DNA from: Escherichia phage FP43
Length of the DNA stretch: 64,000 nucleotides
Reading direction: 5' to 3' (one strand)
Sequence record: MN648445
Part shown: positions 5,534 through 23,546 of the stretch, one piece after another
Layout: every line of letters starts with the position of its first letter
How positions within the stretch are numbered: the first letter of the stretch is position 1
The notes under the pieces: generated by a model
Database searches by the model: none
The model's input: only the letters and a program-made list of their open reading frames with translations
What the model was told of the DNA's origin: nothing
Translations under genes and position numbers: made by a program

Positions 5534-5555
5534 GGGAGACTTCGGTCTCCCTTTT
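5534..5555 (+). terminator. Rho-independent terminator after gene 32
   Basis: Hairpin GGGAGAC-TTCG-GTCTCCC followed by TTTT. Confidence 0.75.
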
Positions 5556-5583
5556 GGGCATCTGTAACTTACCTAAAAAAGTT

Positions 5584-5612
5584 GTTTACTTCCTCCAAGG
5601 ACATGATACTAT
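5584..5612 (+). promoter_or_regulatory. Early promoter
   Basis: GTTTAC, 17-nt spacer, GATACTAT; conserved downstream leader CAACAACATGAGGAAAT before ATG 5642. Confidence 0.6.
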
Positions 5613-6489: not shown

Positions 6490-6517
6490 CAAAACAAATG
6501 AAGCAACGGAGAATAAA

Positions 6518-6766
6518 ATGAAATTACAACGCCAAAGCATTAACGATTCTGAAGTTAAAGGCAAATGGTACTTCAACATCCTTGATAAAGATGCTGAACT
6601 CCTTGAACAAGCTGAAGCAGCTTTACGTGAAATGGGCTGGAATGAAGAATGTGATGGATGTCCACTTTATGAAGACGGCGAAAGCGCAGGATTCTGGATT
6701 CACCACTCCGACGTTGAAATGTTCAAAGCTGATTGGAAAGTTGTTAAAGCAAATCTGAGGAAATAA
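6518..6766 (+). CDS. Hypothetical protein
   Basis: 82-aa ORF with RBS GGAG; positional equivalent of T4 frd.x ORFs. Confidence 0.5.
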   Translation: MKLQRQSINDSEVKGKWYFNILDKDAELLEQAEAALREMGWNEECDGCPLYEDGESAGFWIHHSDVEMFKADWKVVKANLRK

Positions 6767-20576: not shown

Positions 20577-20870
20577 GTTTTAGGTGATTCGCTACCTTAG
20601 TGCGGCTAGAAAATCGAGGAGCCGTCGAACTGTCTGATTAATGATTTGCGAATCATTATAGTTTTAAGACCCCGGCAGTTTTACGGTGTACCTCTTGAAT
20701 GTATTTTATACTATCACGCGTCAGAAAAAGGTTATCTGTCTAAGTCGTGGTTGGTATGATGACGGGTTTATGGTTATCCTGTCGTTAAATATCCAAAACC
20801 TATGTTCCCCTTGAGGGCTTGCGCAGGCAATGTCAATAAGTCCTGCATTTTCATTTAAAGAGAATTTATA

Positions 20871-21050
20871 ATGGCAAAACAAGCTAAAGCAAAGAAAGCA
20901 GTTGAAAAGAAAGTTGATGGTACCTCTAAACGCGCTGGATACAAGCGTGGGTCGAACTCTCGTATTAATCAAACAGTTGAGAAGATCATGCGCAGAGCAC
21001 GTGCAGTTCTTCGAGATGATGCTTCTCGTTTTGGAAAGGTTGTTGCATAA
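20871..21050 (+). CDS. Small lysine-rich basic protein (59 aa), unannotated in the ORF track
   Basis: ATG 20871 to TAA 21048-21050; MAKQAKAKKAVEKKVDGTSKRAGYKRGSNSRINQTVEKIMRRARAVLRDDASRFGKVVA; followed at 6 nt by a strong terminator. Confidence 0.45.
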   Translation: MAKQAKAKKAVEKKVDGTSKRAGYKRGSNSRINQTVEKIMRRARAVLRDDASRFGKVVA

Positions 21051-21055
21051 TTTTA

Positions 21056-21077
21056 GGGAGACTTCGGTCTCCCTTTT
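21056..21077 (+). terminator. Rho-independent terminator
   Basis: GGGAGAC-TTCG-GTCTCCC followed by TTTT; identical stem-loop to the gene 32 terminator. Confidence 0.75.
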
Positions 21078-21109
21078 GTGCGTTTAGGGCAGAAAAAGTT
21101 TAAAAAGAT

Positions 21110-21138
21110 GTTTACTCTCCTGTAGGATGTGTTACTAT
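21110..21138 (+). promoter_or_regulatory. Early promoter
   Basis: GTTTAC 21110-21115, 17-nt spacer, TGTGTTACTAT ending 21138. Confidence 0.6.
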
Positions 21139-21180
21139 AGACTTGTACCATCTAATCAATAAAACAACCTGGAGAACAAA

Positions 21181-21549
21181 ATGAAAATCAATCTGAACTC
21201 ATACATCAAATGTAAAGACCACGACGGTTATAAAGCTATCGAAATTAAAGAATTCCAGTGGATGTTATACAAAGAGCAATTTGAGATCGTAAGTTGTATG
21301 ACCCCTGAAGGTCCTTCAAATGATTTCTCTTGGAAAATTGTGTTAGCAAACTTTTTCACAGGTGACACATACGAATTAAAAACTATTATTACAGGTAAAA
21401 TTCGCTCAGAAACATATGTTGACGAAGAAACTGGTTACTCTGAAGATGTCACATGGTATCAAAATGGACGCATTACAGCAGATAACCTGATCGAAAAAAT
21501 GAAAGCCAAAGGTGTTTTAAATTTAGACAATTGGATTAAAGTTGCATAA
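21181..21549 (+). CDS. Hypothetical protein
   Basis: 122-aa ORF with own promoter and RBS GGAG. Confidence 0.5.
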   Translation: MKINLNSYIKCKDHDGYKAIEIKEFQWMLYKEQFEIVSCMTPEGPSNDFSWKIVLANFFTGDTYELKTIITGKIRSETYVDEETGYSEDVTWYQNGRITADNLIEKMKAKGVLNLDNWIKVA

Positions 21550-21553
21550 AACA

Positions 21554-21593
21554 GTTTACTTTGGTACAGGTTATGTTATTATAGACCTGTACC
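21554..21593 (+). promoter_or_regulatory. Early promoter with -10 embedded in the loop of a perfect 8-bp inverted repeat
   Basis: GTTTAC 21554-21559; GGTACAGG (21563-21570) / CCTGTACC (21586-21593) flanking TTATGTTATTATAGA containing TATTAT. Confidence 0.6.
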
Positions 21594-21623
21594 AACAAAC
21601 AACTTAAACATCTGGAGAATAAA

Positions 21624-21989
21624 ATGAACTACATCAACTTCGAACGCAAATATGTTTCTAACGGTATCGCTGGTTCTTCTGAAGTTATTTGCTTATGGAA
21701 ACATAAAAATGGTTCAGTATGTGAAATTGAGCAGTATATGACTCCTAATTACGTTTATATGCGATTTGAAAATGGCATCACGGTTTCAATCACGATGGAA
21801 GGTTCCAACTTCAAAATTGCATTAGATGACGATTTCCGTCAGCGTGATTTAGGTACTCATCCTTGCTGGAATGGTGATAATCGTAAACTTCTGGTTAAAA
21901 CTTGGATTCGTCATATCCTGAGTAACCGAGCTAAACCTGAACATCTCGAAGCAATCTTTGATGTAGTTCTTAATGAATTCGATATCTAA
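21624..21989 (+). CDS. Hypothetical protein
   Basis: 121-aa ORF with RBS GGAG. Confidence 0.5.
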   Translation: MNYINFERKYVSNGIAGSSEVICLWKHKNGSVCEIEQYMTPNYVYMRFENGITVSITMEGSNFKIALDDDFRQRDLGTHPCWNGDNRKLLVKTWIRHILSNRAKPEHLEAIFDVVLNEFDI

Positions 21990-21997
21990 TTTAACTG

Positions 21998-22011
21998 GGA
22001 GCTTCGGCTCC
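21998..22011 (+). other. GC-rich UUCG-loop hairpin without U-tract
   Basis: GGAGC-TTCG-GCTCC between ORF 21624 stop and ORF 22025 RBS. Confidence 0.35.
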
Positions 22012-22024
22012 TACTGAGGAAATT

Positions 22025-22639
22025 ATGTTTAAAGTTAATACTTTTTATAAAATGAATTTTAAAAATGGGGATATTACTCCACGCCTTAAAAACATGTTCT
22101 CATATGACCTTATCGAGCCTTTTGAAGTTTTAGAAGTTACTGATGCCGGCTCAGTTTGTGAAATTAGAACTTCTGAAGGTAAAATTTATCAGGCAGGTGT
22201 CGGTAAATTCAGTAATTGTTTTACTTTAATATTCTCGACTGATTTAGATGAGCATTTTATTGAATGTCCTAACCCTAAGGTCTATGAAGTTCCACATCAA
22301 GAAATTAAGAAAAATGGACCGCACGAATATACGAAGGTTGAAACTCCTCACGGCGTGATGTGGCGTCATAACTCTCCTTTTGGAAGTAAAGGAACATTTG
22401 CTCAACTGGCTAAGCCCTACGACGATGAAAAATATGTAGTAGTCCTTTTATCTGAACAGGGTACTCAAGACCGTGGATGTCAACGAAGTGGTTTACTAAG
22501 TGAACTCGAAGCTCATAACCGAGCACGTGAATTCGTTGAGAAAAATCCTGGTTCTGAAGCTCTAGTCATGAAAGCAATTACTCAATATATCACTGCTCAA
22601 CCTGTTGTTCATCCGGTAGAAATTAATTTCATTAAGTAG
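22025..22639 (+). CDS. Hypothetical protein
   Basis: 204-aa ORF, RBS GAGGAAA. Confidence 0.5.
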   Translation: MFKVNTFYKMNFKNGDITPRLKNMFSYDLIEPFEVLEVTDAGSVCEIRTSEGKIYQAGVGKFSNCFTLIFSTDLDEHFIECPNPKVYEVPHQEIKKNGPHEYTKVETPHGVMWRHNSPFGSKGTFAQLAKPYDDEKYVVVLLSEQGTQDRGCQRSGLLSELEAHNRAREFVEKNPGSEALVMKAITQYITAQPVVHPVEINFIK

Positions 22640-22669
22640 TTTACATCCAAGGACGGATTAGAGTATAAT
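22639..22669 (+). promoter_or_regulatory. Early promoter
   Basis: GTTTAC 22639-22644 overlapping upstream stop codon, 19-nt spacer, TATAAT 22664-22669. Confidence 0.5.
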
Positions 22670-22893: not shown

Positions 22894-23095
22894 ATTAATC
22901 CAGAAATTGTTAGGTACAGAAATGGTTGAAGTTACGTATCGTGTGACTGATGTAAGCCCATGGACCCGAAAAGTTGAACCATATACTAAAACAATTAAAA
23001 TGCTGAAATATGACAGTGGATTATCTATCAAAGACCGTCTACCGGCTTATGGTCATTGGGCTGATGTTGAAATTATAAGTGTTAAAGATGTCTGA
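22883..23095 (+). CDS. Hypothetical protein
   Basis: 70-aa ORF overlapping neighbours at both ends. Confidence 0.4.
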   Translation: MLNKLIQKLLGTEMVEVTYRVTDVSPWTRKVEPYTKTIKMLKYDSGLSIKDRLPAYGHWADVEIISVKDV

Positions 23096-23546
23096 GTTAG
23101 AGATAAGAAGCAATTTCAAGTGGCCGTCATGTGCATTAAGTAACTTTGCTCAATGGCCTTTTGTTATGGATGGTATTCAATTCGGAGGTCTTGAAGGATT
23201 TCTCCAAGGATGTAAGGTGAAAAATGTTGAACAACAAAGACGTATATTTGGGTTGTCTGGATTGGCCGCACAGCAAGCTGGAAGGTCTTATGCAAGAGCT
23301 CAGGACCGTGGGACTCTCTTCTGGTTAGGAGTTCCATTTTCAAGATACTCCGAAGCGTGGAAAGAATTATACACAAATGCATATTTTGAAGCCGCGATCC
23401 AAAACAAGGGGTTTCGTGATGCCTTACAAGCCTCTAAAGGAAAAATTTTGAAGCACAGCATGGCCAGCCACCTAACAAAAGATGATACAATACTAACTGA
23501 AGATGAATTTATTGACGTGTTAAACCTATTAAGAGACTCTTTATGA
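23088..23546 (+). CDS. NADAR-domain (YbiA-like, DUF1768) protein; putative ADP-ribose-linked N-glycosidase / de-ADP-ribosylating hydrolase
   Basis: Motif LSNFAQWPFVMDGIQFGGLEGFLQGCKV parallels the YbiA-family signature FSNFAAWP..DG...SEHYFQAQKF as recalled; ATG 23088 overlaps upstream stop (alternative GTG start 23079); ATGA overlap with the downstream HAD ORF. Confidence 0.65.
   Translation: MSELEIRSNFKWPSCALSNFAQWPFVMDGIQFGGLEGFLQGCKVKNVEQQRRIFGLSGLAAQQAGRSYARAQDRGTLFWLGVPFSRYSEAWKELYTNAYFEAAIQNKGFRDALQASKGKILKHSMASHLTKDDTILTEDEFIDVLNLLRDSL

Follow-up and report, generated by a model that had tools for sequence, protein, structure and literature searches.

Two small open reading frames in Escherichia phage FP43 each follow an early promoter of their own and are bordered by hairpins, an arrangement that raises the question of what the genes encode and whether each is a mobile unit or simply a member of an early operon. 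The original prediction placed both reading frames at the positions that we recover (Table 1) and read them as self-contained, moron-like cassettes of horizontal origin. We address the question with the whole 64-kb stretch of DNA that contains them, here called the window, and with the corresponding loci of related phages.

Identity of the locus and its two proteins

The window derives from an RB69-like Mosigvirus, its top DNA matches being Mosigvirus genomes at 98% identity, and the phage is of the virulent T-even type (Straboviridae, Tevenvirinae, Mosigvirus). The gene order, from rIII through 30.9, 30.8 and 30.7 and on to ligase, is that of T4 and likewise of phage SA79RD, whose annotation carries terminators and promoters at these exact positions. 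The succession of terminator, promoter, 30.8, promoter with hairpin, 30.7 and hairpin is also found in T4. Genes 30.8 and 30.7 are co-located across Tequatro-, Mosig-, Dhaka-, Gapriver-, Winkler-, Karam-, Jiaoda-, Marfa- and Mosugukvirus, and the gene content between rIII and ligase varies among the genera compared. The pair is located three reading frames upstream of 30.3/adfN, a known anti-DarTG gene.

The view that both genes are unknown and free of recognisable motifs had to be abandoned, given that they sit at the T4 position and belong to established Pfam families. The 30.8 protein matches Phage_30_8 (PF06019) over residues 2-121 with an E-value of 1.7e-44 and 151.1 bits (cut-off 25), and the 30.7 protein matches Phage_T4_Gp30_7 (PF06919) over residues 1-120 with an E-value of 4e-53 and 178.6 bits (cut-off 27). 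We find 30.8 in 1037 phage records and 30.7 in 996, so neither gene is a recent arrival. The 30.8 allele is 37.6% identical to the one carried by T4, RB14 and RB32 (38-44% in comparisons with T4 itself) and is 12 residues longer than the T4 protein. Gp30.7 is 95% identical to its T4 counterpart (dN/dS of 0.05), whereas the ligases share 64-66%, depending on the alignment; the identity for the 30.9 protein is 94.8%. Profile-profile comparison and BLAST reveal no relation between the 30.7 and 30.8 proteins, which upholds the earlier opinion that they are not paralogous.

Remote homology searches and structure prediction, both proposed at the outset, yielded confident AlphaFold models (pLDDT of 93.6 for gp30.8 and 91.9 for gp30.7) and zero structural matches in the PDB, where neither model retrieved anything in Foldseek at E ≤ 1e-3 and all TM-scores were below 0.3. 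Searched against BFVD, the gp30.7 model retrieves members of its own family only. Searching PDB chains with either protein sequence gave nothing meaningful, NCBIfam gave zero matches for the two proteins, and Rfam gave a single spurious weak match. With the 30.8 profile, an exhaustive HMMER search produced 28 matches among 1.84 billion representatives, nearly all of them comparable in size or fragmentary and shorter. The two long ones, adhesins with SprB and GBS-Bsp repeats, were judged to be repeat noise.

Gp30.8 and gp30.7 are phage-only proteins, and T4 can do without its copies in laboratory hosts: both genes are non-essential by transposon insertion (HIDEN-SEQ supplement) and were scored 'Not Fit' by CRISPRi-ART. 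Literature searches on the function of either protein found nothing. We infer that host takeover or counter-defence would be the likeliest role of both. A more specific picture is possible, though we regard it as doubtful: the two might be immediate-early, host-acting effectors with unseen folds that serve takeover or block an immune system, the swapping of 30.8 reflecting an arms race with a variable target and the near-invariance of 30.7 a conserved one. As phage-only proteins encoded near 30.3/adfN, they are reasonable candidates for defence-system screens.

Signals that frame the two genes

Table 1. Features of the 30.9 to 30.7 region and the reading frame behind it, in window coordinates.
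Feature	Position	Strand	Description
Gene 30.9	20871..21050	+	59 aa, pI 11.4 (very basic); phrog_1427
Intrinsic terminator	21056..21077	+	GGGAGAC-UUCG-GUCUCCC, then UUUU
30.8 early promoter	21110..21138	+	-35 GTTTAC 21110-21115, 17-nt spacer, TGT, -10 TACTAT 21133-21138
30.8 ribosome-binding site	21171..21181	+	GGAGAACAAAA, exact match to the strong RegB/S1 consensus
Gene 30.8	21181..21549	+	122 aa, 'Mosig-type' allele; PF06019, phrog_1507
30.7 early promoter	21554..21582	+	-35 GTTTAC 21554-21559, 17-nt spacer, TGT, -10 TATTAT 21577-21582
Stem-loop across the 30.7 promoter -10	21563..21593	+	arms GGTACAGGT 21563-21571 and ACCTGTACC 21585-21593
30.7 ribosome-binding site	21614..21624	+	GGAGAATAAAA, exact match to the RegB/S1 consensus
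Gene 30.7	21624..21989	+	121 aa; PF06919
Intercistronic C(UUCG)G hairpin	21996..22013 (core 21998-22011)	+	U-run absent
204-aa ORF	22025..22639	+	phrog_17531; ATG 22025

The terminator predicted behind 30.9 proved genuine and shields 30.8 on its upstream side. Its hairpin occupies 21056-21073. It folds at -19.4 kcal/mol (z of -3.9; none of 200 shuffles matched or beat it), and SA79RD carries an annotated rho-independent terminator at the equivalent position. A hairpin followed by a T-run, differing in stem sequence, also lies behind 30.9 in T4, pzk-kv8, Ent31, K65PH164 and PM2. An automated terminator scan missed the element, probably because the stem runs into the T-run. Transcription arriving from upstream would be halted here.

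Both early promoters were likewise found where predicted. The strict pattern GTTTAC-N17-TAYWAT occurs three times in the window against 0.08 expected, a relaxed version 15 times against 4.5 expected, and about 11 similar early promoters lie on the + strand. The two sites (GTTTACT-N17-TACTAT and GTTTACT-N17-TATTAT) fit the T4/PST PeSL promoter consensus, TTTACW-N17-TAYWAT (PMC4122927). An A-rich, UP-like stretch, GAAAAAGTTTAAAAAGA, occupies 21092-21108 upstream of the 30.8 promoter, whereas only a short TAAAACA precedes that of 30.7. The SA79RD annotation lists this second promoter as a T4 early promoter, and it is 90% identical to its T4 counterpart. As a strong T4-type sigma70 promoter, the first would become active right after infection and give a 30.8 mRNA with a short leader.

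The inverted repeat reported at the second promoter is real, and its arms bracket the -10 element. The stem-loop folds at -19.5 kcal/mol (z of -3.5; none of 200 shuffles is as good), and a stem-loop spanning the -10 is kept in eight lineage types with differing stem sequences and z-scores from -3.9 to -6.8. In a covariation test, 97.9% of the cells are paired and seven of the ten pairs have changed on both sides, which none of 500 shuffles reaches; the four cells with one-sided changes are all G-C to G-U. This combination of wide retention, covariation and one-sided changes confined to G-U indicates that selection acts on the promoter hairpin as a folded structure.

A palindromic operator in the DNA, bound by a dimeric repressor that might be gp30.7, would also sit across the -10, the classic operator position, and symmetric change in both arms is expected of it too if the half-sites shift jointly with binding specificity and so mimic covariation. 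The gp30.7 model even displays a conserved basic patch (R72, R74, H79, R87, K92 and R96), but in the Foldseek searches of PDB and BFVD it shows no recognisable DNA-binding fold. We consider an operator very unlikely because every one-sided change preserves the RNA pair while breaking DNA symmetry, and because the geometry varies where an operator would have fixed spacing: in Karamvirus-type phages the right arm is shifted downstream by about 25 nt, onto the ribosome-binding site, leaving a loop of about 40 nt, and in Jiaodavirus the geometry is different again.

The RNA hairpin can form only in transcripts that read through from upstream. Polymerase passing beyond 30.8 would transcribe it, with its arms on either side of the -10 of the next promoter. 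Lacking a U-run, the structure may cause termination or attenuation or simply stabilise RNA; if it attenuates or protects 3' ends in read-through transcripts, it would insulate 30.8 from the 30.7 unit. Transcription from the second promoter would begin inside the right arm and yield the 30.7 mRNA.

The GC-rich UUCG hairpin predicted behind 30.7 is present and conserved, being retained with changed stems in T4, Vettismorki, pzk-kv8, Ent31 and K65PH164, but it is probably not a terminator. Taken alone it is weaker than the other two hairpins (z of -1.9; nine of 200 shuffles as good), and its CTTCGG motif is found 28 times in the window against 16.4 expected. Since it has no U-run and is closely followed by a GAGG ribosome-binding site (22016-22019, 2 nt past the full stem and 4 nt past the core) and by an ATG, we regard it as an intercistronic hairpin that leaves 30.7 open downstream; it too may terminate, attenuate or merely stabilise RNA. 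The 204-aa ORF behind it takes the place of T4 genes 30.6 and 30.5, is loosely paralogous to genes flanking 30.7 in other genera, and has no promoter of its own, the nearest next sigma70-like promoter lying at 22640-22669. It is presumably co-transcribed with 30.7, whose mRNA would run beyond the hairpin into it. The idea of independent cassettes therefore survives in part: 30.8 and 30.7 are each served by a separate early promoter, and 30.8 is insulated by a terminator, but 30.7 presumably reads into the next gene.

A feature overlooked earlier is that both ribosome-binding sites, with GGAG 7 nt ahead of each ATG, match the strong RegB/S1 consensus, GG*AGRAYARAA (PMC3014915), at 11 of 11 positions. 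Such sites (GGAGRAYARAA) number three in 64 kb against 0.34 expected, and in RNA started at the gene's own promoter neither the site at 21171 nor that at 21614 is part of a predicted hairpin. The T4 30.7 gene gives an early transcript, and primer extension demonstrated that RegB cuts the GGAG in its ribosome-binding region (PMC9409239); RegB of the RB69 type has reportedly diverged from that of T4 (PMC3014915). With both sites at consensus, a RegB/S1 cut would end translation within minutes and confine the two proteins to a brief early pulse. Start sites, termination efficiency and RegB cleavage in FP43 are proposed from sequence and from the precedent of T4.

Exchange at regulatory boundaries

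Identity to T4 changes abruptly across the locus: it drops at 21038, where the terminator region begins, climbs to 90% at 21555, in the GTTTAC of the second promoter, and drops again near 21992, at the hairpin. Synonymous divergence from T4 follows the same mosaic, with dS of 0.2-0.6 for genes 31, rIII, 30.9, 30.7 and 30.3 and of 1.3 to above 2 for cd, 30.8, 30.2 and ligase, a difference of four-fold or more between neighbours. Constraint, as opposed to recent exchange, may account for part of the low dS in some genes, although the adjoining non-coding DNA is also 95-97% identical to T4.

Other phages preserve individual events. In the Tequatrovirus teqskov, the 30.8 ORF alone is of Mosig type, and its flanks are 95-100% identical to T4. 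Gene 30.8 is missing at three of the 41 other 30.7-bearing loci examined (L037, L041 and L043), and in L041, which also lacks one further gene, the junction falls within a 13-nt ribosome-binding-site repeat, ACGGAGAATAAAA. The original prediction had asked for presence/absence polymorphism of each cassette; 30.8 shows it, and its alleles are swapped between genera. Between 30.8 and 30.7, other genera carry zero to two additional genes. Gene 30.7 is never missing among the Tevenvirinae loci, all of which were selected for carrying 30.7 or 30.8. The pair is nevertheless not universal in T4-like phages, as Krischvirus JSE lacks rIII, 30.9, 30.8 and 30.7. Homologues of 30.8 also turn up in unrelated contexts, and one lies in a phage of the Vequintavirinae.

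These comparisons support the cassettes as exchangeable modules with breakpoints at regulatory elements. Exchange via repeats is apparent from the genome comparison, and the repeated promoter, leader and ribosome-binding sequences would act as homology patches for replacement, deletion or insertion of an ORF. Compared from -10 to +25, the two promoters of one genome are more alike (0.68) than promoters of different genomes (0.53). Within T4 the similarity is just 0.38; concerted evolution is therefore not universal.

Could the locus instead be an ordinary, vertically inherited early operon, in which internal promoters and hairpins are the T4 norm and nothing is exchanged? Both genes do hold the same place across nine genera, and the elements are generic, as the number of similar promoters and CTTCGG motifs in the window attests. 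Vertical descent sits poorly, however, with identity that switches sharply at regulatory elements, with the dS gap between neighbours, with a foreign 30.8 ORF in the T4 backbone of teqskov, with the deletion junction of L041 in a repeated ribosome-binding site and with the 30.8 homologue outside the Tevenvirinae, and we regard it as improbable.

The moron concept comes from work on temperate phages (Hendrix and colleagues), and a classical moron would be a recently acquired, autonomous promoter-gene-terminator unit with a host-directed benefit. Gene 30.8 resembles one in its upstream terminator, own promoter, polymorphism of presence and allele, and lower GC content (33.6% against 38.1% for the window). 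The resemblance ends there: the phage is virulent, which leaves no prophage expression; both genes have long been resident at the locus; the elements that frame them are generic early signals that belong to the phage; neither downstream hairpin has a U-run, and the hairpin behind 30.7 is followed within 14 nt by the ribosome-binding site and ATG of the next ORF; and 30.7 is the first gene of a two-gene unit. This reading is already largely contradicted, and we hold it to be extremely unlikely. Of the earlier description as moron-like and horizontally acquired, the exchange units remain, as the T4 mosaic and teqskov attest; recent acquisition does not.

Comparison with known systems

We conclude that the locus very probably consists of two PeSL-type early cassettes that carry Mosigvirus orthologues of T4 30.8 and 30.7 within the variable rIII-to-ligase region and that would work as proposed above. 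Much of this is known, in that the architecture, the T4 regulation and the PeSL shuffling model have been published and near-identical phages annotated, and the genomic feature itself adds little. Its use is as a clean, well-bounded case of single-ORF exchange with breakpoints in ribosome-binding-site and promoter repeats. It also draws attention to gp30.8 and gp30.7 as small, confidently modelled, phage-only proteins for which we found no structural or functional relatives.

Like the morons of temperate phages, 30.8 and 30.7 are single small accessory genes with their own promoters, flanked by hairpins and, at least for 30.8, variably present; unlike them, they are long-resident genes expressed early in the lytic cycle of a virulent phage, and 30.7 has no terminator downstream. 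C(UUCG)G hairpins between the cistrons of T4 mRNAs were reportedly described by Tuerk and colleagues in 1988, and the tetraloop is common to the terminator at 21056 and the hairpin behind 30.7, a generic element with no notable difference here. With the corresponding region of T4 the locus shares the terminator after 30.9, the two early promoters, the stem-loop at the second promoter and the GGAG sites, and it differs in its diverged 30.8 allele and its 204-aa ORF in lieu of 30.6 and 30.5. Truncaite et al. 2006 (Virology 344:378), as cited in PMC9409239, published how this region is regulated in T4-type phages. In the RegB/S1 inactivation of T4 early mRNAs (PMC3014915, PMC1702504), the shared feature is the full consensus at both sites; cleavage was established by experiment for the T4 30.7 site and is presumed in FP43.

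The nearest relatives are the PeSLs of T4-type phages, whose definition, promoter and terminator assays and tie to insertions and deletions have been described (PMC2839356, PMC4122927; Arbiol et al. 2010; Comeau et al. 2014). As in those elements, we find a T4/PST-type promoter, a stable stem-loop, an AT-rich upstream stretch and, at the 3' end, the start codon and ribosome-binding site of a small gene whose T4 orthologue is non-essential, all in a hyperplastic region and linked to insertions, deletions and replacements between related phages. The stem-loop lies upstream of the promoter for 30.8 and overlaps the -10 for 30.7. Promoter and terminator activity and mini-circles were assayed in the described PeSLs (PMC2839356), whereas the FP43 elements are predicted from sequence. 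The stems differ from the G-run/C-run type of RB49 and phi1, and the genes framed here are widely conserved rather than ORFans.

Genetic context and framing of 30.8 and 30.7

The two small ORFs belong to described T4 families: ORF1 matches Pfam PF06019 (Phage_30_8, E 1.7e-44), and ORF2 matches PF06919 (Phage_T4_Gp30_7, E 4e-53). Genes on the + strand run in the order DAHP synthase, cd, 31.1, 31, rIII, 30.9, ORF1, ORF2, a 204-aa ORF, a 30.4-like gene, 30.3, 30.2, 30.1, and DNA ligase gene 30, and T4 has the same order in the rIII-to-ligase region. The 1.3 kb around 30.8/30.7 are 97.5–98.2% identical to many sequenced Escherichia phages (Mizar, phiEC1, SA79RD, and others), of which SA79RD is classified in Straboviridae, Tevenvirinae, Mosigvirus (RB69-like). 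The SA79RD counterpart of the DAHP synthase gene is annotated as phospho-2-dehydro-3-deoxyheptonate aldolase, Tyr-sensitive, an enzyme of the aromatic-amino-acid pathway that is found here within a virulent T-even-type phage.

All the elements of the original prediction (ORFs, terminator, promoters, inverted repeat, and hairpin) were recovered where it had placed them, and the SA79RD record annotates a terminator and an early promoter at the corresponding positions. The two promoters, at 21110-21138 and 21554-21582, consist of GTTTAC, a 17-nt spacer, and TAYWAT, with TGT directly before the −10, and match the T4/PST consensus TTTACW-N17-TAYWAT of the promoter-early stem-loop (PeSL). The 64 kb contain the strict pattern three times (0.08 expected) and a relaxed one 15 times (4.5 expected), about 11 of these 15 being similar-looking + strand sites. 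The prediction had not included the ribosome-binding sites of 30.8 and 30.7, GGAGAACAAAA and GGAGAATAAAA, both of which fit the 11-nt strong RegB/S1 consensus GGAGRAYARAA (PMC3014915), present three times in the window against 0.34 expected. The third strict promoter, preceded by a hairpin, and the third exact RegB-consensus site lie elsewhere on the + strand and are probably parts of another PeSL-type early cassette.

Features of the 30.8/30.7 region and related elements in the window
Feature	Position	Strand	Remarks
CTTCGG hairpin, then GTTTAC-N17-TACTAT	5540-5612	+	third strict promoter
RegB-consensus ribosome-binding site	6508-6518	+	third exact site
DAHP synthase, 330 aa	17942-18934	+	directly upstream of cd; cd.1-cd.5 at that place in T4
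rIII-30.9 spacer	20577-20870		294 nt, non-coding
Terminator GGGAGAC-UUCG-GUCUCCC, then UUUU	21056-21077	+	-19.4 kcal/mol, z -3.9
ORF1 (30.8), 122 aa	21181-21549	+	
Inverted repeat bracketing -10 of 30.7 promoter	21563-21571 with 21585-21593	+	-19.5 kcal/mol, z -3.5
ORF2 (30.7), 121 aa	21624-21989	+	
UUCG hairpin	21996-22013	+	z -1.9, weaker on its own; no U-run
204-aa ORF	22025-22639	+	stands in place of T4 30.6/30.5
30.3 orthologue (NADAR)	23079-23546	+	96% protein identity to T4, dS 0.47; shallow-divergence mosaic segment

Each gene has its own early promoter, and 30.8 is set off from 30.9 by the upstream terminator, but 30.7 heads a two-gene unit and its cassette is not closed. Because the UUCG hairpin behind 30.7 lacks a U-run and the next ORF's ribosome-binding site (GAGG) and ATG come right after it, it is intercistronic and not a terminator. 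The promoter scan found none ahead of this 204-aa ORF, the next promoter lying at 22640. The ORF has no Pfam family match and belongs to a loose family of 150–204-aa paralogues; five other Tevenvirinae genera (loci L003–L007) have one to three of these around 30.7, each with a hairpin and a GAGGAAA ribosome-binding site in front.

A hairpin across the 30.7 promoter

We compared the sequences preceding 30.7 at 42 loci, the window among them, taken from GenBank phages and IMG/VR. A strong hairpin starts directly after the −35 in every case, and its stem sequence is lineage-specific. The arms are GGTACAGGT/ACCTGTACC in T-even phages, Mosig- and Dhakavirus, GGTGAGAGTC/GACTCTCACC in Winklervirus, GGTGTAGGAGTA/TACTCTTACACC in Marfavirus, GCTGATTGAGTGT/ACACTCAATCAGC in one further group, TTGGGTGGT/ACCACCCAA in Jiaodavirus, and TTGTAGGAGAC/GTCTCCTACAA in Mosugukvirus; in the Karamvirus type (CTCCGTTGTAT/ATACAACGGAG or CTCCGAGGTTT/AAACCTCGGAG), the ribosome-binding site itself serves as the right arm. 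For eight representatives, folding energies range from −17.7 to −24.3 kcal/mol (z −3.9 to −6.8). In an alignment of ten sequences with a common geometry, 97.9% of cells are paired and seven of the ten pairs have changed on both sides, a level of covariation reached by none of 500 shuffles; slid controls are 33–50% paired. On this comparative evidence, we conclude that the hairpin is under selection as a structure.

A palindromic protein operator could also produce such a repeat. The four one-sided changes in the stem, however, all convert G-C to G-U, and together with the variable loop length they favor an RNA hairpin. The predicted 30.7 transcript start, ≈7 nt past the −10 near 21589, falls inside the right arm, so that the hairpin could form only in RNA arriving from upstream. 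This RNA hairpin may act by attenuation, by 3′ stabilization or, in the Karamvirus type, by masking the ribosome-binding site.

Mosaic exchange, loss, and spread

Divergence from T4 differs sharply from gene to gene within 1 kb (21181-21549 versus 21624-21989). The products of 31, rIII, 30.9, 30.7, and 30.3 are 93–97% identical to those of T4 (dS 0.2–0.6), whereas those of cd, 30.8, 30.2, 30.1, and ligase are 44–73% identical with dS saturated; gp30.7 is 95% identical, its neighbor gp30.8 ≈38–44%, and ligase ≈64–66%. Nucleotide identity falls at 21038, the start of the terminator region, stays at 35–60% across the 30.8 promoter and gene, leaps to 90% exactly at the GTTTAC of the 30.7 promoter (21555), and remains high to the end of 30.7 before dropping again at the hairpin. 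Non-coding DNA beside 30.9 is 95–97.5% identical to T4, and the low divergence is therefore not a matter of codon constraint alone. This stretch (20761-20917, in and beyond the rIII-30.9 spacer) is conserved beyond most nearby coding sequence; the spacer carries an insertion of ≈35–50 nt relative to T4 near 20700-20760 and has no Rfam match.

Tequatrovirus teqskov provides a clear exchange of 30.8. It is 95–100% identical to T4 on both flanks, yet from ATG to stop its 30.8 is 72–92% identical to the window and merely 37–65% to T4, with breakpoints at the ribosome-binding site/ATG of 30.8 and at the 30.7 promoter. Gaprivervirus MN01 has the teqskov allele type and JS98 the T4 type. Compared with near-identical Jiaodaviruses, one IMG/VR genome (L041) is missing 30.8 together with the gene behind it, the deletion junction lying within a 13-nt repeat, ACGGAGAATAAAA, common to both cassettes; two further loci (L037 and L043) likewise lack 30.8. 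One or two extra genes of 156–176 aa stand between 30.8 and 30.7 in Winkler-, Marfa-, Karam-, Jiaoda-, and Mosugukvirus and form one loose paralogous family with the 204-aa ORF of the window. Over the −10 to +25 segment, the two promoters of one genome are, in most lineages, more alike (mean 0.68) than promoters from different genomes (mean 0.53), T4 being an exception (0.38 within).

Relatives detected by tblastn occur in 1037 (30.8) and 996 (30.7) phage records, but neither gene is universal among T4-like phages: Krischvirus JSE lacks rIII, 30.9, 30.8, and 30.7. Vequintavirinae phage 4MG encodes a 30.8 homolog (40% identity), and 30.8 also turns up at five IMG/VR loci whose surroundings are unrelated. 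A 183-kb IMG/VR phage (L066, 3501-4739) has 30.8 and 30.7 homologs 520 nt apart, with gene 31, rIII, 30.9, 30.2, and ligase all missing nearby, and the two may travel together as a pair. The view of the cassettes as exchangeable accessory units is thus supported.

The two proteins and their place among known cassettes

Profile-profile comparison and BLAST confirm that the 30.8 and 30.7 families are unrelated, and the PHROGs matching them have no assigned function. Confident AlphaFold models predict a seven-strand meander sheet with three helices for gp30.7 (pLDDT 91.9) and a mainly beta fold with one helix for gp30.8 (pLDDT 93.6). Against the PDB, neither model had a match at E ≤ 1e-3 and all TM-scores were below 0.3; in BFVD, gp30.7 had no match outside its own family. 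An exhaustive search with the 30.8 profile gave 28 hits in 1.84 billion representatives, nearly all similar-sized proteins or shorter fragments. In a type IX secretion adhesin of 1436 aa, 12 SprB repeats matched profile residues 31–73, and in a protein of 826 aa the GBS Bsp-like repeats matched residues 8–67 (hits P0107 and P0113); these are probably beta-hairpin repeat noise.

The T4 orthologs are dispensable in laboratory hosts: both are non-essential in HIDEN-SEQ, with insertions at 28/29 sites (30.7) and 25/25 (30.8), and both scored "Not Fit" in CRISPRi-ART. In one conditional comparison (HIDEN-SEQ preprint, supplementary file 7), T4 30.8 insertions rose about nine-fold, a log2 change of +3.22 that was not significant (p 0.19). 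Early expression timing, this dispensability, phage-only distribution, and a position three ORFs upstream of 30.3, which in T4 is the anti-DarTG1 gene adfN (HIDEN-SEQ preprint), make a role in host takeover or counter-defense plausible, though unproven. Most likely, the two strong promoters would drive immediate-early transcription of 30.8 and 30.7, the terminator upstream of 30.8 and the hairpin in read-through RNA would insulate the cassettes, RegB cutting at the consensus ribosome-binding sites would shut them off fast, and the repeated regulatory sequences would allow evolutionary shuffling.

Both the kind of feature and the family members are known, and sequenced phages nearly identical to this one exist; what remains of value are two orphan folds and a clear case of single-ORF swapping. 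The elements are laid out in T4 as in the window: 30.9 is followed by a UUCG terminator and its T-run, then by 30.8 behind a GTTTAC early promoter, then by 30.7 behind a second GTTTAC promoter whose −10 is flanked by the arms GGTACAGG...CCTGTACC, and finally by a GC-rich hairpin and the next gene's ribosome-binding site. Truncaite et al. reportedly described a terminator, early promoter(s), a stem-loop, and RegB sites that are shared by 16 T4-type phages. The T4 30.7 mRNA is a known early transcript, cut by RegB at GGAG in the ribosome-binding region (PMC9409239, where Truncaite et al. is cited). PeSLs combine an early promoter with a stem-loop that can take several positions, are sited in hyperplastic regions, and have been tied to modular shuffling (Arbiol et al. 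2010; Comeau et al. 2014). The cassettes described here share this general architecture; they contain no novel or recently acquired genes, but T4 30.8 and 30.7, both long known, in a PeSL framing that is likewise known.
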